Assembly: GCA_963806905.1 (NCBI GenBank)
Contig: CAWEAA010000008.1
Location: 462,395-526,394, forward strand
Direction of reading: 5' to 3'
DNA length: 64,000 nt
From: an uncultured Verrucomicrobiae bacterium
GTDB lineage: Bacteria > Verrucomicrobiota > Verrucomicrobiia > Limisphaerales > UBA11358
Shown here: in pieces, positions 7,665 to 24,545 of the stretch
Position numbering within the stretch: the stretch's first letter is position 1
Layout: each line of letters starts with the position of its first letter
The notes under the pieces: model-generated
Databases searched by the model: none
The model's input: only the letters and a program-made list of their open reading frames with translations
Told to the model about the DNA's origin: nothing
Program-made: the position numbers and the translations under genes

Positions 7665-7739
7665 GCCAGCTTAGCTCAGCGGTAGAGCAACGGTTTTGTA
7701 AACCGTGGGTCGTCGGTTCGATCCCGACAGCTGGCTCCA
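7665..7739 (+). tRNA. tRNA-Thr(TGT), 75 nt with encoded CCA, contains attL
   Basis: Acceptor GCCAGCT/AGCTGGC, D-arm GCTC..GAGC, anticodon stem ACGGT/ACCGT with loop TTTGTAA, T-arm GTCGG-TTCGATC-CCGAC. Confidence 0.98.
7687..7739 (+). repeat. attL core (53 bp, 3' part of tRNA-Thr)
   Basis: 50/53 identical to 22900-22952. Confidence 0.96.
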
Positions 7740-7756
7740 GTTAACATTGGAGCATT

Positions 7757-8568: not shown

Positions 8569-9366
8569 ATGACTCTCAAAAATTCTCTCACCACATGGGC
8601 TGCGTTGCGTGCTCCGGTCGTGAAGCCGCGGACGCGGGACTATCATCAGGAACTTATCGGCTGCATTTTCCGGAACTGGCCCGGCATGGAGGACGTGGAC
8701 GTGCTGGCGATCGCGGAGCCGGCCGTCCTGGAGTTCATCGAGCGCATCGAGCATTTGAGTGCGACGCGATACAATGGAATCCTCACGATGCTTAAAGCGG
8801 TCCTGCCGGCCGCAAAAAATCTTCGACGCCGGCGGATCCGGATGAAGGACCGGCCGTTGCTCTCACAACTGGAATTTTCTCGACTCCTGCAGGAGCTCGA
8901 CGGCCGGCCGAAGAGTCACGCGGGCCTGGTGATCCGTTTTCTATCGCACACGGGTTTGCGAATCGCGGAGGCCCGGGCCATCCGATGGCCCGACGTCCAC
9001 GAAGATTTTATCCTGGTGCCTGGCACCGTCAGTAAGAGCGGCCGGCCGCGTGTGATCCCGTTTGTGAACGGCGTTGCCGACGCACTGCAGGGCTTGAGAG
9101 GCCTCGCCGGCGATTCGGGGGCGGTGATTCCCCAGGGAGAGTGCAAACGGTCGCTGCAAACGTCCTGCGAGCTTGCAGGCCTGCCGCGATTGTCGCATCA
9201 CAGTTTCCGTCACTTGTTCGCCACGCGCTGCATTGAGAGCGGCGTAGATCTGCCGACGGTTGCGCGTTGGCTCGGCCATCAGGACGGAGGAGCGTTGCTA
9301 TCCCGGACCTACTTCCACCTGGTGGACGAGCACAGCCGGCGAATGGCTGCAAAGGTCCGGATCTAA
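8569..9366 (+). CDS. int: Tyrosine recombinase/integrase (265 aa)
   Basis: Complete catalytic set: TGLRIAE (R), SKSG (K), HSFRH, WLGH, RTYFH (Y). Confidence 0.95.
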   Translation: MTLKNSLTTWAALRAPVVKPRTRDYHQELIGCIFRNWPGMEDVDVLAIAEPAVLEFIERIEHLSATRYNGILTMLKAVLPAAKNLRRRRIRMKDRPLLSQLEFSRLLQELDGRPKSHAGLVIRFLSHTGLRIAEARAIRWPDVHEDFILVPGTVSKSGRPRVIPFVNGVADALQGLRGLAGDSGAVIPQGECKRSLQTSCELAGLPRLSHHSFRHLFATRCIESGVDLPTVARWLGHQDGGALLSRTYFHLVDEHSRRMAAKVRI

Positions 9367-9684: not shown

Positions 9685-10112
9685 GATCCGGGTTTATAAT
9701 TTGCATCCACCGCGCCGTTCAAAGCGGCCGAAGGAGCCGCGGCCGCGGCGGGTGCAGGCGTGGCACTGGCAAGCGGCGTAGCGCCCGGGGGAGGCGGAAC
9801 CGGTGTTGAGAGCGCAACGACATTTGCCGGCGCCGGAGCGGCTGCCCGAACGGCCGCGATTGAAGGTAGTGCAGACGCCGGCACGTAATCCGCATAACTC
9901 TTGGCGAGCACCTTGGCCCGGAGCGCTTCCCAATCGGCCGGCGTTGGATCCGGATTGTTGAAGATGAGTTTGAGATCATCGATCACGCCAGGCGTGACGG
10001 CGATGGCTTCTTCCACCAGGGAAAGAATCAAAGCGAGCATTGCGGGTGTCATAATGTTGTTTTTGGTGAACAGTTTGGTCAGTGCGTTGATGGTGGCGTC
10101 GAGTTCGGTCAT
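9681..10112 (-). CDS. Prophage hypothetical protein with Ala/Pro-rich tail (lysis region)
   Basis: ATGA overlap with upstream gene. Confidence 0.75.
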   Translation of the reverse strand: MTELDATINALTKLFTKNNIMTPAMLALILSLVEEAIAVTPGVIDDLKLIFNNPDPTPADWEALRAKVLAKSYADYVPASALPSIAAVRAAAPAPANVVALSTPVPPPPGATPLASATPAPAAAAAPSAALNGAVDANYKPGS

Positions 10113-10738
10113 TGCAATTTAACGCCAAGCGAGGTGATCAGATTTTCGAGGTCAGTCAGGTCCTGGCCTGCGGTGGACGTTGCCTGCTGCAGCGCTAGGC
10201 TCATTTGAGCGGCCGTCGTGGAGTTGGTGACACTGGCGGCCGCGTAAGCGGCGCCGGCGTCGCAGGCCACGGCCACCGCGGCCTGGTATTTTTCGTAAGC
10301 GTTCTCCACCTGGAGCTCCACGTTGGTGGACGGATGACTTGCGGCGACGTAGGCGCCCCACAGATTCATGGCGGTATCGACGCTGACAACGGCCGTGCCG
10401 GCCGATTGATAGGCGATGGTCTGTGGCGTGGACTGGCAACCGATGATGGCCACCATCGCCAGGCATGCAAAGGCGAGCATCATCAATGGAATTTTCGGCG
10501 CTGAACTTGCGGCCGCTGCAGTTGCCGGAGCCGTATCGCTTGCCGGCGGATCATCCGGACCCTTGGCGACGCCGGCGCGCAGGAAGGCGACGGCCGCGGC
10601 CATCAGGGCCAGATAGACTTCACTGGGGATCTGCCACCAATGTTGCCAGTTGCCGAACAGCAGGACGCCGGTGGCGAGTGCGGTGAGATAGGTTTTTTTA
10701 CCCGATAGGAGTTGGAGCAATGTGCTGAGTGTGTTCAT
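10109..10738 (-). CDS. Holin-like two-TM domain fused to a lipobox-bearing helical domain
   Basis: LSGKKTYL..two TM helices..AFLRAGV, then a linker, then KIPLMMLAFACLAMVAIIG-C. Confidence 0.6.
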   Translation of the reverse strand: MNTLSTLLQLLSGKKTYLTALATGVLLFGNWQHWWQIPSEVYLALMAAAVAFLRAGVAKGPDDPPASDTAPATAAAASSAPKIPLMMLAFACLAMVAIIGCQSTPQTIAYQSAGTAVVSVDTAMNLWGAYVAASHPSTNVELQVENAYEKYQAAVAVACDAGAAYAAASVTNSTTAAQMSLALQQATSTAGQDLTDLENLITSLGVKLQ

Positions 10739-11066: not shown

Positions 11067-11533
11067 GAGAACCAGGTCGTGGGATTCCAGGGAGAGGTGG
11101 ACCAGCTCGAGTCCGCCGCGGCCTGGGCGGATTCAGTGGCCGCGTTGTTGGATGCGGCCGTGGCAGCCGCGTTGGCGGCGGCGGTGCCTTGGGTGGATGC
11201 AATCGTTTGGTACATGGCGCCGCCTGGCTGATACGAGCCGGCCACCACGTCCTGCGCGGCCGCGTTTTGCTGTTCGGTGGCCGTCAGCAAAGGAAGCTGG
11301 GTGAGCGCAACGGCGCCCTGGTAGGGAGTTGAACTGACAACTGCACTTTTGACGGCTGAAGCCGCGGTCACGAGCGTGTTCCACGGAGCCAGAAGGACAT
11401 CCATGAAAGTCTTCGTGCCGGCGGCGATATCGGCCTTGAAATTTTGATACGCCTTGTACATCTCGATGGCCACGTAAACCCCGACACCGAGCGTGAGGAT
11501 GATCATGATGTGTTTCCAGGGGATTTTTTTCAT
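11063..11533 (-). CDS. Prophage membrane protein, N-terminal TM and Ala/Thr-rich tail (156 aa)
   Basis: HIMIILTLGVGVYVAI TM segment, ATGA overlaps. Confidence 0.8.
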   Translation of the reverse strand: MKKIPWKHIMIILTLGVGVYVAIEMYKAYQNFKADIAAGTKTFMDVLLAPWNTLVTAASAVKSAVVSSTPYQGAVALTQLPLLTATEQQNAAAQDVVAGSYQPGGAMYQTIASTQGTAAANAAATAASNNAATESAQAAADSSWSTSPWNPTTWFS

Positions 11534-13368
11534 TGGTTGAGGATGGCTTGCCAGTAGATGGTGTCCGCGGAAGGGAAGTTACCGGTGTCGGAAATATAAA
11601 AGCCCGCCGTGGTCATGTTGGTGATCACAAAAACAGTTGCACCACTTGGGGACGAGCACGCCAGGCTGACTGAATAATTGGTTGAAGGCAGAGGCGATGA
11701 AAAGAGAACGTTGGTGTGCGATAAGGTGCCTGCTGAAATGTACAACAACCCGGCCCGATACCAGGGTGGCAAGCCAGTGAGGCTGGCTGCAGGTGTGTTT
11801 GAGGTTGATGAAGCATCTCCCGCCAAGAAAGCGGCAGTGAGCGTTGCATCGACTTTTGTGTTGCCGTTAACTTCTAATGGTTGCGATGCTGCATTCGTCC
11901 CTATGCCGATGTTCCCTTTGTTGAATGAGAGGACGTTGGTGTAGAGCACTGTGTTGTTCATTTGGTGCCAGACCCAGGCCACGTTGCCGCCAGTAACGAA
12001 TTCCTGGCATATCAGGTAGTAGCCCGAACTGTACTCCAACTCTTGGATATAACCCGGGCCGTCCTCCTGATTGAAAACTGTGAAAGTTGCGAGATTGTTT
12101 GTCGTTCCGACACTGAGGCTGGAAGGAAAAATTACGCCATCCGGTGACAACCACAGATTTTGACCCTGGCTGTCGTCCACCGGCGTGTCCGGCCCGTCGT
12201 AAAAATTTCCAGTGGCCGTGCTCATGAAATGCACTGGCGTTACGTAAAACGATGCGAAGTCCCAGATGCTGTTGCCGCTGATTTTGTTGTAGGTAGTGTT
12301 CGCCAGGCGCATGGCGTTGGTGTAACTCCCGGCCTCAATCGTGTTGTTAGCAATTATATTTCCACCACTGCCAAAGCTGCCACCGTCAATTTCAATCGCG
12401 CAGTCCCCGCCGCATCCCAACCAGATGATGTTGTTCTCAAAGGGCACGGCATTCGCCCAGGTGCGGAAATAAATCACCCGGCGCAACCGATCAAACTGCC
12501 CATCCGCGATGACTGTGCCGTAGCCCTGAAAAGCATTGGTCACGTCCAAGCCCGACACCGCGTTGGTCCCGCCCAAAATAATGCCGTCCTGTTGCGGGTA
12601 GATCCCGCCACCCGGGTGAGCAGCCGTCTTGCCGCACAAAAGGAAATTATGCATGTAAAGCGTCGTGCAGGTATCAAGGATGAACGGCGAAGTGCCATCC
12701 CTGGCATCGTACAGCGAAAGGTGATCAATTTCCAGTGTCCCACGGCCGATGGTCTGAATTTTCGCTATGGCATTGGTTGCGTCCAACAGAAGGATCGTGC
12801 CGTTGGTGGGGGCAAGCTGCAGGTTGCCGCTGAAATCGTTGCCGACCCCCGTTAATCGGATCGTGGGTTGCCAGAAATTAGATCCGCCGTCCCAACTGTC
12901 ATAGTAAGCGATGGGGCCGTGAGGAATGAAAATCACGCGGGGAAGAAAATAAGCTGACCCGGGAAAAAAGACGATGCCTCCGCCGGCATTATAGGCTGCC
13001 TGGATCGTGTTTGAGACGGCAATCGAGTCATCCGTCACTCCGTCCCCGACCGCTCCCCAAAATTTCACGTTGAACACGGGCAGATTGTTGCTGGCGGAGT
13101 CACACACCCCATGTATCAGGCCGTAGAAAGTGCCGTTGCTATAAACGCCGCCCACGTTGGTCGGGTTAGTTGAAACGGGGTTGACCAGATTTGCGTTCGT
13201 GATCGGCCAGTTGTTGGTTGCCAGGACGCCGAGCTTGGCCAGCGCTGCCGTCGCATTCTGAGACTGCAATAGTCCCCGGGAGAAAGGCGTCGTCTGCACG
13301 ACCGGGCCGTCAGCCGCGGCGTGCCAGGCTGCAAGCGCAAAACAGAATGTCAGGATTTTTTTAAACAT
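11530..13368 (-). CDS. Beta-helix (pectate-lyase-3-like) spike/depolymerase with N-terminal signal peptide (612 aa)
   Basis: Start MFKKILTFCFALAAWHAAA-DG overlaps the upstream stop. FNVKFWGAVGDGVTDDS...GGGIVFFP motif, GNIGIGT linker, tail-fibre-like C-terminal beta domain. Confidence 0.8.
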   Translation of the reverse strand: MFKKILTFCFALAAWHAAADGPVVQTTPFSRGLLQSQNATAALAKLGVLATNNWPITNANLVNPVSTNPTNVGGVYSNGTFYGLIHGVCDSASNNLPVFNVKFWGAVGDGVTDDSIAVSNTIQAAYNAGGGIVFFPGSAYFLPRVIFIPHGPIAYYDSWDGGSNFWQPTIRLTGVGNDFSGNLQLAPTNGTILLLDATNAIAKIQTIGRGTLEIDHLSLYDARDGTSPFILDTCTTLYMHNFLLCGKTAAHPGGGIYPQQDGIILGGTNAVSGLDVTNAFQGYGTVIADGQFDRLRRVIYFRTWANAVPFENNIIWLGCGGDCAIEIDGGSFGSGGNIIANNTIEAGSYTNAMRLANTTYNKISGNSIWDFASFYVTPVHFMSTATGNFYDGPDTPVDDSQGQNLWLSPDGVIFPSSLSVGTTNNLATFTVFNQEDGPGYIQELEYSSGYYLICQEFVTGGNVAWVWHQMNNTVLYTNVLSFNKGNIGIGTNAASQPLEVNGNTKVDATLTAAFLAGDASSTSNTPAASLTGLPPWYRAGLLYISAGTLSHTNVLFSSPLPSTNYSVSLACSSPSGATVFVITNMTTAGFYISDTGNFPSADTIYWQAILNQ

Positions 13369-13992
13369 AGATGACTGAGATGCCGTCCCCACCGTTGGCT
13401 GCGGACACGTACCAGGATCCGAAGTCGCGCTTCCCACCAGGGTCCGCTTCGATTTCGTATTGATCACCCGGGTTAAGCTGGATCGGCTGATGCGCTCCAG
13501 AATTGCCGATGTAAACCGCGCCGGCGTTGGCTGCGCGATCGAGGCTTTGCTGTGCGATGATGATTGCCCGTCGGAAATAGGATCCCGCGGCCGCAAAGGC
13601 GATGGCCGCGCCACCGCCCACAGTATTTTTCTGGAATTGGCCTTCAGCTTCGAGGGCGCAACCGGCGAGCGTGTTGGAGATGGGCGCCTGATTTACATTG
13701 ACGTTGCTGGTGACGCTGACGTCGCCGTTTTGATCGGCGAATTGCTGACGTAGAAGGTGATCGTCACCGGCACGCCCGAGTCGTTGTAAAAAGTCAGCTT
13801 GCCGAACTGGGGAGAGGCATCGTCGCCGAAGCCCGAGCCGGTTTCGCTGAAATCATATTCGTCGCCGGTGCTGGTGATGACACGGAAGGCCCCGTTGGTT
13901 GCTGTCAGCAAAAAGTATTTCCCCGTGATGCACATGGCGAAGACGCCTGACGCATTGCCGGCTATGGGAATTGTGAGCGTGATCGGTTTCAT
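13361..13992 (-). pseudogene. Penton/spike-base-like all-beta protein (~210 aa) split by a 1-bp deletion near 13724
   Basis: The 99-aa and 86-aa ORFs join through an open -1 frame (..PIKT / DVSVTSNVNVNQAPISNT..). Span is 632 bp = 3n+2. Second domain RRAIII..AVYIG..LNPGDQYEI recalls PM2 P1. Confidence 0.7.
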
Positions 13993-14496
13993 GATTTGTG
14001 TTTGAACAGGGCGATCAAGGCCACCAGGGCCCCCACGCCGGCCAGAATCAGGCCCAGAGTCTTGTAGGTGATCGAGCCGCCAGTCCCTGGCACAGGCTGG
14101 TTTAAAGCGTTGCTGGCGGTCTGCAGGCCGTTGGCTGCGGAAGCTGAGACCCCCTGGACCGCATTCGAGAATTGATCAGCCAGCTGACTGATCAGCGCGT
14201 CCGCGTTCGGATCGCCCACCGTGATCGTTGAGCCAGTGCCGGCATCGATCGTTCCCACTTGGCCGCCCACTTTTGATGCTCCGCTTAGATCCACTGCTCC
14301 GGCTTCCTGGTATTTGCCTTGGGCGCCCACCGCGATCGAACCGGTCGTGGCCGCGGTGCCCGTGTCCGTCACGTTCGGCGAGGCCGCTCCGCTCGTGGTC
14401 AACGTCTTTTGCGAGGCTCTGCTGTGAACTGCTCGAGGCGCTCCAGCCAACCAACGGCAAGAAAAAAGGCAGATGATAGATGAGGTGAAGTATCAT
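13989..14496 (-). pseudogene. Gly/Ser/Thr-rich virion membrane protein with C-terminal TM (~168 aa) split by a 1-bp insertion near 14416
   Basis: ATG 14496 overlaps upstream TGA. MILHLIYHLPFFLPLVGWSASSSSQQ continues in another frame as SQKTLTTSG...LILAGVGALVALIALFKHKS. Span is 508 bp = 3n+1. Confidence 0.75.
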
Positions 14497-14930
14497 ACCG
14501 TCTTGCACATGATCAGTCCCAGCGGCTTGTAACCCTGGCTCGCGCCGAAGCGATACAAACTGGCCAGGCGCGTCACCCACATGATTGTTGGAGCGGAGAA
14601 ATGTCTGGCTAGCGCGTCGCCCGCATCGAAAACGAATTTGAAGGAGGTTTTCCCCAGGGCTGCAACGCCTTCGATGATCAGCCAGCCCAACGCGTTGCGC
14701 GAGTGGATCATCACGAAAGCCGGTTTGTCGTCCACCTGGACGGTTGAGGCCTGGAAGGCACCGGCCTTGACCAGGCGCGTGAACATCCCCGGTTCATAGA
14801 TGCCATCCAGAATCTTGCCGGCGATCGCCCCGAGCTCGGCTTCCGCCTGCTGCAGCTCGCCTTCGCTGCTCTCCAGGATGGAAAACAGCTGCGTCTCGGT
14901 TATCAGCAGGCGTTTTTTATCGGCGTGCAT
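14493..14930 (-). CDS. Prophage protein, possible GNAT-like fold (145 aa)
   Basis: LIIEGVAALG..DALARHFSAPTIMWVTR..LYRF..QGYKP resembles the GNAT C-terminal pattern. Confidence 0.55.
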   Translation of the reverse strand: MHADKKRLLITETQLFSILESSEGELQQAEAELGAIAGKILDGIYEPGMFTRLVKAGAFQASTVQVDDKPAFVMIHSRNALGWLIIEGVAALGKTSFKFVFDAGDALARHFSAPTIMWVTRLASLYRFGASQGYKPLGLIMCKTV

Positions 14931-15105
14931 ACAACAAACCAAAGGTGAGGAGGATCGCCAGAAAACCGCCCGCGATGACCATGATCGTGGTAGTGCTCAG
15001 CGGGCCACCGCTGTTGTTGACGGTGACGGGGCCGACGCCGCCCGTCGAAGCTCCCGACGATGCGCTGGCGCTCAAACCGCCTCCGCCTCCACCTAACAAG
15101 CTCAT
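14917..15105 (-). CDS. Small Gly/Ser-rich virion membrane protein (62 aa)
   Basis: C-terminal TM followed by basic residues, ATGA overlap. Confidence 0.8.
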   Translation of the reverse strand: MSLLGGGGGGLSASASSGASTGGVGPVTVNNSGGPLSTTTIMVIAGGFLAILLTFGLLYARR

Positions 15106-15239
15106 TTTTTCTTTCTAAGGAGCACCAACACCAGCAGCCCGAAAAGAACCGCCACGGCGATCCAGGGGACCGTGCTGGTGACTGCCTGCACTCGCTGGGT
15201 CTGGTTTCCCTGGCTCAGCAACAGTTGGGCTGTGTCCAT
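15102..15239 (-). CDS. Small virion membrane protein (45 aa, below ORF-track cutoff)
   Basis: MDTAQLLLSQGNQTQRVQAVTSTVPWIAVAVLFGLLVLVLLRKKK, abuts both neighbours. Confidence 0.8.
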   Translation of the reverse strand: MDTAQLLLSQGNQTQRVQAVTSTVPWIAVAVLFGLLVLVLLRKKK

Positions 15240-15590
15240 TTATTTTTTGCGGAACAACAACAGGATCGCCACGAGCACGCCGCCGCAGATCAGGATCCAC
15301 GGCAGATACTGGGTGAGCGTCGAAGTCGTGGTGGCGGGTTTGGCCGCGGTCGTGCTGGGTGAAACGCTGAAAAGTTTGTAAGCGTTGGCAGCCGTGGTCC
15401 CCAACCCCGACAAACCGCTCACCAGGGAAGAAAAGAAGTTGCCGCTGGTGTTGGTGTTGCCGCCGCTGCTGTCAACCGGGGTTGATAGAAACAGCGGGCT
15501 GCTGTTGGGGGCCGTGGAACCGTTAAGGTTCAGACCCAAGCTGCTTGAATCCGAGCCGAGCCCTAAAAGGTCTAAAGTTGGATCGTCCAT
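15240..15590 (-). CDS. Virion membrane protein with C-terminal TM (116 aa), positional equivalent of PM2 P3
   Basis: Immediately downstream of MCP, ends LPWILICGGVLVAILLLFRKK. Confidence 0.78.
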   Translation of the reverse strand: MDDPTLDLLGLGSDSSSLGLNLNGSTAPNSSPLFLSTPVDSSGGNTNTSGNFFSSLVSGLSGLGTTAANAYKLFSVSPSTTAAKPATTTSTLTQYLPWILICGGVLVAILLLFRKK

Positions 15591-15653: not shown

Positions 15654-16559
15654 CTAGCCGAGTGTCGGAAGACCAAGCCGCTGCGTAATGCGGCGCAAGG
15701 TGCCGTTGGAAGCGGCCGCCAGCGTCAGATTAAGCTGCGTCGAAGCAACCGAACTCACGGCGCGCAATGACTCGAACAGATCGTCGTGATCGAACATCAG
15801 GGGGAACAAACCCGCTTGCGGATTCATGTCGTAGTTGGTCAGCAACTGCGCGTTTTCGTTCGCGGTGATGTCGTCATAAATGACGTTGGCGCCCGCGAGC
15901 AGCCGCGCCTGAATGATGCCCTTGCTGCCCGCGACGCTGTCGGAGGGATCGAAGATGTCCACCTCGGAGATCAGGTCCGTGCCGGGCATGCCCTGGAAGA
16001 TGTTCGCCAGCGGCACCAGAGCGGAGCTCGTCTGCGAATCATCCGCCTGCCACTTGATGATCGGCGTGGCTGCGCCGATGCCGAAATCGTCCACGCAAGC
16101 TGTGGCCGCGAGGACAGGAGTCGTCCCGATCAACGGGATCTTCACCTGGAACGTGTCGTTGGTGCCGAGCCAGTCGGTCGTGCAGGCCAACCCGTTCTGG
16201 TAATCTGCGCGTTTGCGCCACGGCTCCTCAAAAAAGATCGAGAGCAAGGTGCGGCCGCTGCCGGCGCCGGTGCCGGCGTAACCGATTGAGGCATATTTCG
16301 AGCCGTTGAGCTGATTGATCGTGTCAATCTGCACGGCCGTCGCGCGCCGGATTTGTTTCGACGCCAGAAGAATCTGGATGTCGCCACTCGTGACTGCAGA
16401 GAGTGCGGGTGCGTTGGCGTTGCCGGCGCCGGCATCGCCAAGGATGAGCTGGATGCTCTTATACCGGGGCCCCTTGGGGCAATTGATGGTTGCGACGGTC
16501 CCCGTGGCCACGCCGGTGATGTCTTGAAGTTGGATTTTACGATTGGGAGCAAAAGGCAT
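15654..16559 (-). CDS. Double jelly-roll major capsid protein, PM2 P2-like (301 aa)
   Basis: N-terminus LQDITGVATGTVATINCPKGPRYKSIQL and C-terminal DDITANENAQLLTNY..LFPLMFDHDD match the pattern of PM2 P2 as I recall it. Size, beta-rich composition and flanking TM genes agree. Confidence 0.85.
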   Translation of the reverse strand: MPFAPNRKIQLQDITGVATGTVATINCPKGPRYKSIQLILGDAGAGNANAPALSAVTSGDIQILLASKQIRRATAVQIDTINQLNGSKYASIGYAGTGAGSGRTLLSIFFEEPWRKRADYQNGLACTTDWLGTNDTFQVKIPLIGTTPVLAATACVDDFGIGAATPIIKWQADDSQTSSALVPLANIFQGMPGTDLISEVDIFDPSDSVAGSKGIIQARLLAGANVIYDDITANENAQLLTNYDMNPQAGLFPLMFDHDDLFESLRAVSSVASTQLNLTLAAASNGTLRRITQRLGLPTLG

Positions 16560-18436: not shown

Positions 18437-18607
18437 GAATCCCGATCGCTTTTGCAAGGCCCGCAGAATTCCGGATCCTGATCCGGCCGCATGGCTTTTC
18501 GTTTCTCAGGTTCACCGATGCCACGTTGCCGCTGCCCAGAGTCGAGCCGGGAGGATCCGATTTTCCAGACGCGCTCGCCGCGACTTTTTATTTCTGCTCT
18601 CCCTGCC

Positions 18608-19282
18608 ATGCCCGACTATTCACTCCCCAGTTGCATCACGCTGATCTTCGGCAAGGGCGGTAGTTGCAAAACCACTTTTGCTTTCGCGTACCTGCTCAAC
18701 GTGCTTGCCGCCTGCCGTTTCATCTTCGACGATCGCGGCCAGGCTTCCACCAGATTAAAGCTCAAAGCTTGCACAACGCTCCGTGATCTCGAGCTAGCGC
18801 TTCTCACCCGTTGGGTCTGTTTCAATCCTCACATCATGTTCCCTGGAGCAAGACTCCCGGACGGATTCCTTTGGTTCCTGAACTGGGTGTTTGAAGTCAG
18901 CAAACGTGGACCGGGAAAAAAAATCCTGTTTGTGGATGAGCTCTGGCAATGGTCCAACTCACGCCGGCCGGTCCCGCCCGAATTGGAGAACGTGATCCGG
19001 ACCGGACGCACTGAAGGCCTCGAGCTTCTGTCCGCCACTCATAGCCCGCGGGAATATCACGAGCTCATCCGGAGCCAGGCAACCGAGTTTATCGCGTTCA
19101 ATACGATCGAGCCGGCGCAACTGGAGTCCATCGAGCCGTATTGGTCCGGAGTGGAAGCCGCGGCGAGACTGCAGGCGGGACAATTTCTCGCTTACGATCG
19201 CAACTCAGGCGGGACCGCGGCCGGGATGCTCGAGCCGGGATGGCCACCAGGAAGATTTTTGCCCGTTGAAGTCAGTCCGTAG
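18608..19282 (+). CDS. FtsK/HerA-superfamily genome-packaging ATPase (A32/PM2 P9-like, 224 aa)
   Basis: Walker A GKGGSCKT near the N-terminus, FIFD, Walker B ILFVDE, arginine-finger RTGRTEG, SATHSP, IRSQAT. No TM segment. Confidence 0.85.
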   Translation: MPDYSLPSCITLIFGKGGSCKTTFAFAYLLNVLAACRFIFDDRGQASTRLKLKACTTLRDLELALLTRWVCFNPHIMFPGARLPDGFLWFLNWVFEVSKRGPGKKILFVDELWQWSNSRRPVPPELENVIRTGRTEGLELLSATHSPREYHELIRSQATEFIAFNTIEPAQLESIEPYWSGVEAAARLQAGQFLAYDRNSGGTAAGMLEPGWPPGRFLPVEVSP

Positions 19283-19604
19283 CTGCCAGGCGGAACACGT
19301 CCCTGATTTTCGCCCGGATCTCGCGCCGGCGTTCGAGGCTGACGTGCCCTTTGCGTCCAAAAATTTTACTGCTGTCCAAAAGATAGATCACCGAGCAGTC
19401 GCAGAAGGTTTCCCAATCGAGCCCGTCCTCACCGTTCAGCAAAACCTCGTGTCCTTTGGGGCCTCGACTCTGACGCTGGCTCGTGCAAAAAAGCGCATTG
19501 ACGACTGAGGCATTGGCGCAGAGCCTAGGATGCGAGACCAGAACGACCGGGTGCTCCCCTTTTTTGTCAAACTTGAACTGCCAAACGTCGAATTGGTCCT
19601 TCAC
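19272..19604 (-). CDS. PemK/MazF-like toxin
   Basis: DVWQFKF..HPVVLVS..CTS..HEVLL...GL...C...G.VS pattern, 110 aa, coupled to upstream small gene. Confidence 0.75.
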   Translation of the reverse strand: MKDQFDVWQFKFDKKGEHPVVLVSHPRLCANASVVNALFCTSQRQSRGPKGHEVLLNGEDGLDWETFCDCSVIYLLDSSKIFGRKGHVSLERRREIRAKIRDVFRLAATD

Positions 19605-19828
19605 TCAGGGACCTCCAGGCTCGAGGCTTTAGCCAGTTCGAGCAGTTCGCGGTTACGCGCCGGCGTAATGCCGAAGTCATAATCCGGCGGGAATGGTTCC
19701 TTCGTCTCTGCCCGGACCACTGTGAGCGTGTAGGACCCATCCCCGTGGTCTTCGTAGGCGAGTTTCTGCCGGGGTTTGGCGGACGGCAGCCGGACTCTCT
19801 GGTAATCGTCAACTGTGAGCGTTTTCAC
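19601..19828 (-). CDS. AbrB/MazE-like antitoxin
   Basis: TVDDYQRVRLP swapped-hairpin pattern, GTGA overlap with toxin. Confidence 0.7.
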   Translation of the reverse strand: MKTLTVDDYQRVRLPSAKPRQKLAYEDHGDGSYTLTVVRAETKEPFPPDYDFGITPARNRELLELAKASSLEVPE

Positions 19829-21396: not shown

Positions 21397-22551
21397 TCAG
21401 GTTCGCGCCGCAGTCCCCCCCGCGGCTTTTTGTTGGCGTGCGGCCAGCGCCTTGTCTGCCGCCTCGCGCGAGATCGGCGCGCCGCCGAAGATAAACCACA
21501 CTCCTTTTTGCGTAGCGAAAGCCGCCGCGCTAGGGCATCGGATGATTTTGTGTTCCTTTACCATCGAGGAGATTTCATCCAGGGTGGATCGTGCAACGGT
21601 TGGATTCAGGCGATGTGCAAGACGCCAGCAGGCCCCGAACTCGGCCAGTTCCTTTTTGCTCGCGCCCTGGCGCCAATTTTCGATCACAGTACCAACGTCG
21701 AGCAGGAAGAGATTTTCAGCGTTGAGTTTTTTTGCCCCACCAGCCGTCTTAGAGGCGTTAAAATCCGTTGAACGCTTAAAGAATTTCCTCCCTCCTGATG
21801 GTTTTAACGCTGGAGTCTCCCTTATATGGCCGTCAATGGCGGTTCGATCAACCGGAGATTCACTGCCACAGTGACCGCCGTTGACAGTTGGTGTGACCGC
21901 CATTGACGGTTGGTCTGACCCGGAATTAGCCGGTAAAGAGACCGCCGTTGACGGTTCTTCTGCCCGGACGGCACCGTCACTGTAACCGCCGTTGGCGGTT
22001 GGTGTGACCGCCGCTGGCGGTTGGTCTGACCGAGCAGCATGGCCATTTGCACCGGAATTGACGGTTTTCTGTATTTCTTCGTCACCGACCGCCACTGACG
22101 GTTGGCCTCTTGCGCTCGTTTTCGCCATGATGGCCATGTATTCCTGCCCGGCAAAAGGAAGCTCGGGTTGATCACAAGCGCCGCAGATCCCCCAGCAACA
22201 TTTTGGCCAGCGATTTTGACACCAGATCCAACCAGTCTGGATGAGCTTGTCACGCCAGACGGCAATCGTGTCTTCATCGTGACCGTAAAGGCGTCGAAGG
22301 TCCTTGAGAGAGCAATAGACGCGACCCCACCCATCGCCTCCGAATTTGTTCATGAAAGAGTTATCGGTTAAGACAGTGAAAAGCCACTTTGCCCCAACAA
22401 ACTTCTTTAGACGCTGATCCTGCGAGCAATTTCGCCGTAGCTGAGGCATCATGTTGTTGAGCGCCTCTCTTTTGATTTGCTCTGCCGTTTTCGGCTGTGT
22501 GAGCTCGAAGGCTTTCTGATGGCCGTTGCCGTTCCCGTTGAATTCGTTCAT
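21397..22551 (-). CDS. Putative theta-replication initiator (winged-HTH N-domain, iteron-encoded linker, C-domain)
   Basis: YCSLKDLRRLYGHDEDTIAVWRDKLIQTGWI wHTH pattern. Repetitive central linker encoded by DNA repeats. Confidence 0.7.
   Translation of the reverse strand: MNEFNGNGNGHQKAFELTQPKTAEQIKREALNNMMPQLRRNCSQDQRLKKFVGAKWLFTVLTDNSFMNKFGGDGWGRVYCSLKDLRRLYGHDEDTIAVWRDKLIQTGWIWCQNRWPKCCWGICGACDQPELPFAGQEYMAIMAKTSARGQPSVAVGDEEIQKTVNSGANGHAARSDQPPAAVTPTANGGYSDGAVRAEEPSTAVSLPANSGSDQPSMAVTPTVNGGHCGSESPVDRTAIDGHIRETPALKPSGGRKFFKRSTDFNASKTAGGAKKLNAENLFLLDVGTVIENWRQGASKKELAEFGACWRLAHRLNPTVARSTLDEISSMVKEHKIIRCPSAAAFATQKGVWFIFGGAPISREAADKALAARQQKAAGGTAART
21829..22103. repeat. Iteron-like quasi-palindromic repeats ACCGCCRYTGRCGGTT (putative phage origin)
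   Basis: Copies start at 21874, 21896, 21941, 21985, 22007, 22051 and 22088, with a variant at ~21829. Confidence 0.8.
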
Positions 22552-22899: not shown

Positions 22900-22952
22900 G
22901 CAACGGTTTTGTAAACCGTGGGTCGTCAGTTCAATCCTGACAGCTGGCTCCA
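22900..22952 (+). repeat. attR core (53-bp 3' fragment of tRNA-Thr)
   Basis: gcaacggttttgtaaaccgtgggtcgtcagttcaatcctgacagctggctcca, lacking the tRNA 5' part. Confidence 0.96.
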
Positions 22953-23046
22953 TTTAAAATCAAGGGTTTCCGCGGGTGTCCGTGTTATTATATTGATTTT
23001 GTTCTGTCAAAACTCTGACAAATCGAATTTGTGACGGATGCACAAA

Positions 23047-23447: not shown

Positions 23448-24545
23448 TCACTGTTCTATATGAAGATTTGCAGGTGGAGAAGGAACGTGATAATTCTGAA
23501 ATTGGCTTAAATTTACAGTCTGAATTTGATAATCCGTCCCCAGATTTAAATTGGTGCTGAAATAGTGCATCATGGGGTTTACCACATTCTGGCTATAAAC
23601 ATAATTTTCTTCCGTTTCAGGAAAAAACCAGTGTCCCAGCAAAACCAGATTAGTGTTTATCAAAGCAGTAATCGGACATCCGCTGTCTCCACCAGTAACA
23701 GGTTGAAGCCAGTTTGTACCTAAATAGTTTGGGTCAACAGGGTCTACGGTTGGAATTTCACTGTTTACAATATCCCCCGACAATACTGCGGCTCCCCACC
23801 CTTGGTCTTGGTGCTTAGCTTCTACTGCAAGATTTGTTATTGGATTTACAATGTAATTCGTAACACTAAGGGGCAACTCTTTGTAAGGATGAACCGTATT
23901 AGTGGGAACGTCTGCGTTAAGTACAAGCAATTGCACGTCGGTTCCAACGAAGTTGGTCGTAGCTATTACCTGCCTAACAACTACATTTCCGTTATCATCT
24001 ACGAAAGCAACCCATGTCCCGACTCCTGTGGGAGCATGGTAACATGTTACCGCATAACAGGGGGCGATTAAATTAACATCTTCTTGGTCAGTAACGTTCG
24101 TGGGGGTTGAGGTTCCAGACCACTTCATCACAGAGGAAGCGGTCTTTTCCGGAGCAAAGCTAAACCAAAAATTAGGGTTAATTGTATATTGAAGATTGGT
24201 TCCATTGGGATACTGGATAAAACTAAACATATTCCAAGCTTCTCCCCAAGTAAGGCCGTTGGTAGAGGCAATAGTGTTAGTCAGTATATTGTTAGCTAGG
24301 TCGGGATAAATAGCGGCTGATGAATGATTACAAATGAATAATATGTATAGGGCGCTCCACGAAACACACTTTTTGCGTGCAATCCCATAGCGAGAAAGCA
24401 GAGCCGTTAGCGGAGCAGTCAGTAGCATCGGAATTCCCAATACAAGCAATAAATCCCGCAATGGTTTCATAATCGTCGAGTGTCCTACCAGCAAAAACAA
24501 AGCCAGCCAGCACAGAAAGCCAAGCATATTGCTGGAACCCCTCAA
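23448..24545 (-). CDS. Trypsin-like serine peptidase, low GC, start uncertain
   Basis: LIAPCYAVTCYH (His), GTDVQLLVL (Asp), GGDSGCP (Ser). Confidence 0.7.
   Translation of the reverse strand: MRGSSNMLGFLCWLALFLLVGHSTIMKPLRDLLLVLGIPMLLTAPLTALLSRYGIARKKCVSWSALYILFICNHSSAAIYPDLANNILTNTIASTNGLTWGEAWNMFSFIQYPNGTNLQYTINPNFWFSFAPEKTASSVMKWSGTSTPTNVTDQEDVNLIAPCYAVTCYHAPTGVGTWVAFVDDNGNVVVRQVIATTNFVGTDVQLLVLNADVPTNTVHPYKELPLSVTNYIVNPITNLAVEAKHQDQGWGAAVLSGDIVNSEIPTVDPVDPNYLGTNWLQPVTGGDSGCPITALINTNLVLLGHWFFPETEENYVYSQNVVNPMMHYFSTNLNLGTDYQIQTVNLSQFQNYHVPSPPANLHIEQ

Follow-up and report, generated by a model that had tools for sequence, protein, structure and literature searches.

Icosahedral phages of bacteria are, to our knowledge, taken to be completed in the cytoplasm. 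PM2 and PRD1, whose internal-membrane, double jelly-roll virions carry receptor-binding proteins at their vertices (P1 in PM2; P31, P5 and P2 in PRD1), have leaderless spikes that are assembled in that compartment. Here we describe a vertex of this kind whose likely spike gene, unlike theirs, opens with a Sec-type leader. The gene lies in a 64,000-nt stretch of DNA from an uncultured Verrucomicrobiae bacterium (contig CAWEAA010000008.1, positions 462,395 to 526,394; hereafter the window), within a prophage of about 15.2 kb, where it occupies 11530..13368 on the minus strand and encodes a precursor of 612 amino acids (aa). We favor, with moderate confidence, the reading that its product is a trimeric, tailspike-like spike which is exported, probably modified by the host, and attached to the vertex at lysis or release, because the leader is conserved, a signature of exported proteins is confined to the fibers among the virion proteins, the gene sits where NO16 encodes its spike GP13, no other spike candidate is seen among the window's open reading frames (ORFs), and a relative's fiber is modeled in contact with an adaptor.

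The NO16 vertex shares with the window the gene order major capsid protein (MCP), small membrane proteins, penton and spike, a homologous MCP, and a penton that is close in size and weakly matched by profile. According to the available part of PMC13552765, the gene after the two-domain penton GP14 encodes GP13, a trimeric, carbohydrate-active spike that is anchored by its N-terminal residues 3–20. GP13 is, however, a leaderless protein of two beta-sandwiches, whereas the window encodes a leader-bearing beta-helix whose relatives are often attached via a separate acidic adaptor; the main text of PMC13552765 does not contain the term ‘signal peptide’. The Verrucomicrobia-associated clade A Vinavirales (Yutin et al. 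2022, PMC9502842) are, in the available portions of that work, likewise prophages with an MCP, an ATPase and no recognizable lysin, and their P1-like penton (‘P1_spike’) is 187–264 aa long in most rows shown, but the two fiber rows shown in the supplement are leaderless. The word ‘signal’ occurs 0 times in that main text, and the 11 occurrences of ‘signal peptide’ in the accessible supplement refer to the P5 lysin, to host genes and to one cluster without a name (cls_545). Outside this group, the beta-helical tailspikes GVE2 ORF18 (7chu), phiAB6, Kp32 gp38 and Pam1 have the same fold (Z 23–27) but belong to tailed phages, while the window encodes a probably tailless, membrane-containing virus of another realm. 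We found no report of exported spikes in double jelly-roll phages in the literature searched, which mostly excluded subscription papers and bioRxiv supplements, and the available parts of PMC9502842, PMC13552765, PMC10589892, PMC12715192, PMC8812541, PMC10172136 and PMC5723332 report none.

A Sec-type leader at the start of the spike gene

The ORF at 13368..11530 (minus strand) begins with MFKKILTFCFALAAWHAAA, followed by the cleavage point and DGPVVQTTP. Its residues 1–19 (13312..13368, minus strand) make up a Sec/signal peptidase I (SPase I)-type leader with cleavage predicted between AAA and DG, and the host encodes SPase I (PF10502). The ATG overlaps the TAA stop of the penton gene by 8 nt, an arrangement of translational coupling, and this junction is identical in contigs from two other studies (X1 13148-13511; X4 13321-13624). 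Leaders were called by a fixed rule, not SignalP, that demands a lysine or arginine, an uncharged 8-mer with a Kyte-Doolittle (KD) hydropathy of at least 2.3, and small residues at positions -1 and -3. The window spike passes this rule, as do 23 of 26 fiber genes, compared to 0/21 MCPs and 0/17 pentons, on a background of 6/926 internal windows and 544/2328 host ORFs; a looser earlier rule had flagged the N-terminal piece of the penton and missed one host glycosidase. The fiber gene L042b fails at its chosen ATG; by eye, starting at a GTG upstream would give it a leader-like N-terminus. Its locus was counted via L042a. Judged from sequence, the features of a Sec/SPase I substrate are present (n-, h- and c-regions, an A-x-A site and a true N-terminus). 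These results bear out the preliminary description, which had proposed a leader on a coupled start directly after a penton-like gene and an MCP without a signal peptide.

An alternative is that the leader is left over from the capture of a host secreted enzyme and has no function, the spike being translated from another start and folded in the cytoplasm. The spike frame is open for 108 codons upstream, with no ATG there, and the ORF listing puts the start at a GTG within the penton gene. We nevertheless give this explanation almost no credence, because the leader is kept on unrelated protein bodies in 19 loci, because the Thr-Asn gain described below is lineage-specific, and because 7 relatives (L011, L014a, L015a, L035, L037, L066 and L067a) have an in-frame stop 0–3 codons ahead of the leader ATG, so that the leader is the true N-terminus of those genes. 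A second alternative exploits the fact that cleavage is here a sequence prediction: the leader could be an uncleaved signal-anchor or tether, with the protein displayed on the cell (lysogenic conversion) or held in the virion membrane. This is quite improbable, since the h-regions are short, 23 genes have A-x-A or small residues at -1/-3, the conserved modules start right behind the site, and mature residues 1–6 fall within the interface modeled for a relative.

Conservation of the leader across prophages

Searches with the MCP found the family in 16/162 genomes of the genus, 13/401 genomes of the order and 4/401 of a phylum sample (host included). The order holds 28 MCP loci, including the window, of which 20 are readable in the sense that the penton and the genes following it are visible; the eight left out are cut by contig ends (L012, L033 and L043), are remnants (L016, L041 and L065), show no penton or fiber (L038), or were not examined (L044), and the weak match G078 was also set aside. 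A Sec-type leader is present on the post-penton fiber gene or genes in 19 of the 20 readable loci (18 of 19 relatives), which answers in the affirmative the question, raised in the preliminary description, of whether homologous prophages keep it. The leader-bearing loci come from 18 genomes, and the identity of their MCPs is 15–87% (median 22%). L039 is the sole readable locus in the order with leaderless fibers, and leaderless post-penton genes, assigned by eye, are found in three prophages that belong to the class but lie outside the order, in NO16 and in PG21. Placed on a tree, the leader label requires 2 changes; the tree is unrooted and hence has little bearing on origin. In three prophages, one in the order and two outside it, the leaderless fiber genes are alike by eye (L039 8780-10551; L075 9512-10657; L076 8861-10452), and the first fiber gene of L039 and L076 opens with an adaptor-like Q-x-R-P-T-P motif.

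The fiber bodies are largely unrelated across loci and include beta-helices, GH27, a GDSL esterase and LamG. The retention of the N-terminal module while the bodies differ is the pattern of receptor-binding protein shuffling. In one layout (the window, L011, L064 and the more divergent L066), the fiber directly follows the penton and starts with a TTP(F/Y)xRxLL-type module, which is also found on P0014, ahead of a GH27/LamG body. In a second layout (11 clear loci and the uncertain L061), a leaderless acidic adaptor lies between penton and fiber. It is mostly 48–63 aa long, reaches 125 aa in L010, begins with an N-I-Q-x-x-P-T-P-like motif and contains two or three acidic L-x-D-E-x-G repeats; overlapping stop and start codons usually provide coupling. 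L037, L042 and L062 fit neither layout, and the window's V-Q-T-T-P resembles the adaptor start by eye only. L014 encodes two tandem acidic adaptors (12760-13118) and then two leader-bearing fiber genes, and L015, L063 and L067 each have one adaptor and two fibers; the pairing suggests branched spikes. Extra small leader-bearing genes, fibronectin-III-like or TN-rich, follow the lysis genes in L036 (12035-12466), L039 (12388-12834) and L042 (11535-11876).

Leaders also accompany this fold beyond the family: of 159 homologues of the beta-helix, 62 carry one. In P0105, the leader is immediately followed by a phage tail-protein N-domain. P0003, a leader-bearing homologue of the window's beta-helix, has an S74 chaperone domain and is located at L068 2358-4457, a tailed-phage-like IMG/VR contig, beside head-tail connector-like genes (named by eye). 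Together with P0006 and P0051, these proteins have a leader set directly before fiber-type N-terminal domains, in at least one case in a tailed-phage-like contig. No match was obtained in IMG/VR scans for the MCP, P0105 or P0014, and a pattern scan of GTDB returned one match, which was spurious.

Architecture of the spike

Behind the leader, residues 20–47 (DGPVVQTTPFSRGLL..LG; 13228..13311, minus strand) form a conserved N-terminal module that is likely a vertex anchor or a trimerization segment. It is common to P0014 (E 2e-14), L064 (9e-7) and L011 (4e-4), whose downstream sequences are unlike the window's beta-helix; a search with spike residues 1–62 gave no match. Residues of about 97–425 (12094..13080, minus strand) are predicted to fold into a right-handed beta-helix of the kind found in tailspikes and polysaccharide enzymes. 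PF12708 matches at residues 99–146, and an AlphaFold2 model built on a 109-sequence alignment has a predicted local distance difference test (pLDDT) score mostly above 90 over about residues 91–415, with the right-handed parallel helix and capping helix of a beta-helical tailspike. The best structural matches of the model are GVE2 ORF18 (Z 27.1, root-mean-square deviation 2.9 Å, 267 residues aligned), alginate epimerases and tailspikes. Possible leads on glycan cleavage are an Asp that is invariant (P0001 residue 261) and the conserved motif FQGYG.

The N- and C-terminal parts were modeled without confidence. The beta-helix and the GNIGIGT motif (residues 485–491; 11896..11916, minus strand) of the preliminary description are as it had stated, whereas its fiber-like C-terminal domain (11533..11811, minus strand) is a lead, possibly a fiber tip or lectin-like, with a pLDDT below 55 and Atlas values of 0.86–0.93 (0.87 for H_lectin, 0.86 for PTL_trimer). 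Among the spike's cysteines only C319 is conserved (72/108), and cysteine content is similar in leader-bearing and leaderless homologues; a disulphide rationale for export was therefore dropped.

A Thr-Asn signature of exported proteins

The dipeptide Thr-Asn marks exported proteins in this host, where its use is 2.05 times the expectation in proteins with only a leader, compared to 1.33 times in the set without a hydrophobic segment. The window spike contains 15 Thr-Asn sites (5 expected), and 24 fibers together contain 224 (88 expected). No excess is found in the MCPs (22 versus 32), the pentons (20 versus 20) or the N-domains of 61 tail-anchored proteins (25 versus 29). The excess being present only in the fibers among the virion proteins, only the fibers look as if they shared a compartment with the host's exported proteins. 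It is not an artifact of the beta-helix, because the 159 homologues are close to expectation (378 versus 343 and 396 versus 373, hardly any excess whether or not a leader is present) and because each of the window's 15 sites is common to at most 9 aligned homologues. We found no report of the motif in the literature searched, where subscription papers were mostly outside reach.

The modification that we consider is not canonical N-glycosylation. The preliminary description had pointed to many N-x-S/T sequons, but the spike has 8, compared to 8.5 ± 2.5 in shuffled sequences, and the 24 fibers have 141 compared to 159 expected; STT3 (PF02516) was not found in the host genome, which is 92% complete. 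The N-glycosylation that these sequons implied is thus unsupported, as is a classification as a canonical N-glycoprotein of the PglB/STT3 type. The host instead encodes three TMEM260-like proteins. Each of the 17 other hosts with leader-bearing loci also has TMEM260-like genes, as does the host of L039; none were found in the 3 hosts outside the order whose prophages have leaderless fibers.

Probable placement of the spike on the virion

An exported protein need not belong to the virion. The leader and the export signature resemble those of host secreted proteins, the fold is common to the secreted polysaccharide enzymes AlgE, RbmB and PfbA, and relatives carry GH27 and GDSL bodies, all of which would suit a secreted, non-virion depolymerase that either loosens the capsule to aid release or excludes superinfection by removing the receptor. 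This was the second possibility raised in the preliminary description, and we consider it unlikely. The gene is translationally coupled within the virion operon and has no promoter-like site ahead of it (a weak scan, with 2 found and 3.0 expected; the scans for promoters and terminators did no better than chance). A secreted depolymerase would also leave the virus without a spike, and it does not account for the conserved N-terminal modules, the paired adaptors or the adaptor model described next.

For L040, we modeled the adaptor in complex with a fiber segment, the 60 residues that follow the leader, in three copies. The model scored 0.83 (the best of 3 controls scored 0.00), with at least 97% contact agreement between runs and a partner pLDDT of at least 72; the mark used was reached by 116/157 solved complexes and 2/215 mismatches, counts that are only roughly valid for this job. 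Adaptor residues 25–48 contact mature fiber residues 1–6, 8, 23 and 29–32 of all three copies, and the three acidic repeats each lie on one protomer. As a prediction, the model supports adaptor–fiber binding. If a leaderless adaptor binds an exported trimer, the two must meet after compartments mix.

Where they meet bears on two further alternatives. The vesicle of PRD1 and PM2 is formed by invagination of the inner membrane; if the vesicle here forms likewise, it could conceivably enclose periplasmic proteins, so that an exported protein would end up inside the virion's membrane vesicle, a lumen that is topologically periplasmic, and be released at entry. The tailspike fold, the vertex slot, the pairing with a leaderless adaptor and the lack of any other external spike in the genome make this very unlikely. 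Alternatively, a virion-bound exported spike could be met while particles cross or bud through the inner membrane, in a non-lytic exit free of endolysin. No Pfam lysin was found among 48 downstream genes of 14 loci, and the accessible text of PMC9502842 likewise gives no cell-wall hydrolase in Verrucomicrobia-infecting Vinavirales. Yet that text also notes that PM2 was for a long time believed to rely on a lytic enzyme of its host, PF23987 holin domains are present in 6 of the 14 loci scanned, and the MCP, penton and tail-anchored ectodomains have neither leader nor export signature, which argues that the capsid is not built outside the cytoplasm. We judge non-lytic exit to be as unlikely as the secreted depolymerase.

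The window itself has a candidate holin/lysis gene at 10109..10738 (minus strand). Its product joins a two-helix holin-like N-terminus to a helical domain and an internal segment that resembles a lipobox (LAMVAIIGC), and over the C-terminal half it shares 55% identity with the L064 gene that has a PF23987 holin domain. The same layout is seen repeatedly in the family, six relatives having PF23987, and possibly represents a combined inner- and outer-membrane lysis protein.

Genomic setting of the prophage

The host genome contains the Planctomycetes/Verrucomicrobia marker TIGR04138, which, taken with PMC9502842, points to the Verrucomicrobiota. The prophage is integrated at a tRNA-Thr and bounded by 61-bp repeats. 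The first attachment (att) repeat (7687..7747, plus strand) lies within the 3′ part of the tRNA gene (7665-7739), and the second (22900..22960, plus strand) is 92% identical to it. A tyrosine integrase is encoded at 8569..9366 (plus strand). The double jelly-roll MCP (15654..16559, minus strand) matches Pfam P2_N (E 2e-6), and its family profile matches 9t9v_A (E 4.5e-8) and PM2 P2 (E 0.034); the closest cultured matches of a relative's MCP are NO16-like vibriophages. The packaging ATPase candidate (18491..19282, plus strand; phrog_2666, E 6e-15) is kept beside the MCP in relatives. The MCP and the ATPase place the element in the Vinavirales (PM2/NO16-like), and an icosahedral, tailless particle with an internal membrane is predicted. 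Between MCP and penton, 13989..15590 (minus strand) encodes small tail-anchored membrane proteins, without Thr-Asn excess, in the P3/P8/P10-like slot, and a 149-aa protein in the GNAT slot, as assigned by synteny in the available part of PMC9502842.

The leaderless, penton-like vertex gene (13361..13992, minus strand) is predicted to encode two jelly-roll domains. Its slot and size fit a penton; its profile matches the PG21 homologue (1.5e-5) and, weakly, NO16 GP14 (0.02), its Atlas value for a PF08948 cluster is 0.94, and no sequence match was found in the PDB. A frameshift near 13722 interrupts it. One contig of run X4 (depth 5.1) reads through this site and the pentons of L011 and L064 are intact; the frameshift is therefore probably an assembly error. 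Single-base indels at 13722 (versus one run) and 14415 (versus three runs), both probably of this nature, break the penton and alter the gene at 13989-14450.

The prophage also encodes a replication-initiator-like gene containing six copies of a 22-nt repeat (21861-22108), possibly iterons or an origin, and, at 19272-19828 (minus strand), a PemK/MazF-like toxin with a small upstream partner, likely a toxin–antitoxin pair. Just beyond the right att site, 23448-24545 (minus strand) encodes a low-GC, TN-rich protein with a hydrophobic N-terminus and no match in Pfam, PHROG or NCBIfam.

Proposed assembly of the vertex and its possible consequences

According to the reading that we favor, the spike would be made with a Sec-type leader, exported and presumably cleaved by the host's SPase I. 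It would probably be folded and modified in the periplasm, where a TMEM260-like enzyme of the host may modify Thr-Asn. The capsid would be built in the cytoplasm, and the spike would dock on the vertex only once the inner membrane is opened, the two meeting at holin-triggered lysis. The trimer would dock by its freed mature N-terminus, in many relatives onto the leaderless acidic adaptor, as predicted for L040, and in the window's adaptor-less layout directly on the distal domain of the penton, by analogy with NO16. The preliminary description's first possibility, in which an exported spike is added to particles either in the periplasm or during release, is supported by the conserved leader, the fiber-only export signature, the GP13 slot, the lack of another spike candidate in the window and the relative's adaptor model.

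Several observations weigh against this reading. The fibers of L039 are leaderless, although its host belongs to the same order and has TMEM260-like genes, which indicates that export is not obligatory. The Thr-Asn excess is not found in all fibers (L015a has 2 versus 4.2 expected; L015b, L063a and L067a are near expectation), the host set without hydrophobic segments is itself above 1, and the correlation with TMEM260-like genes is confounded by host phylogeny. The mostly unconserved cysteines give disulphides no supporting role. With 62 of 159 homologues leader-bearing, the beta-helix fold travels with leaders elsewhere, and some of these proteins may be ordinary secreted enzymes. The penton call is built on slot, size, Atlas features and the profile matches given above. 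The complex model describes the L040 layout with its adaptor, which the window does not have, and the fiber N-domain weakly resembles the crAss001 tail fiber gp22 (7qoj, E 0.32), so that the passing score may partly reflect memorization by the model.

A broader proposal, which we put forward only tentatively and hold to be less probable than not by a clear measure, is that two-compartment assembly is family-wide: naked capsids and the leaderless adaptor would be made in the cytoplasm, while spikes would be secreted, cleaved, decorated at Thr-Asn by the host and snapped on at exit, perhaps without a phage endolysin. If so, glycans of the host's type would be present on the virion, which could not mature without the host's export machinery.

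If the spike is indeed exported first, release would include an extra maturation step, a glycan-cutting or sticky protein would be kept away from the site of assembly, and the virus would borrow the folding and modification capacity of the host's periplasm. It would also give a reason why such spikes might fail when they are expressed in the cytoplasm. The 50-aa adaptor and the trimer of 60-aa segments make up a small and testable system.

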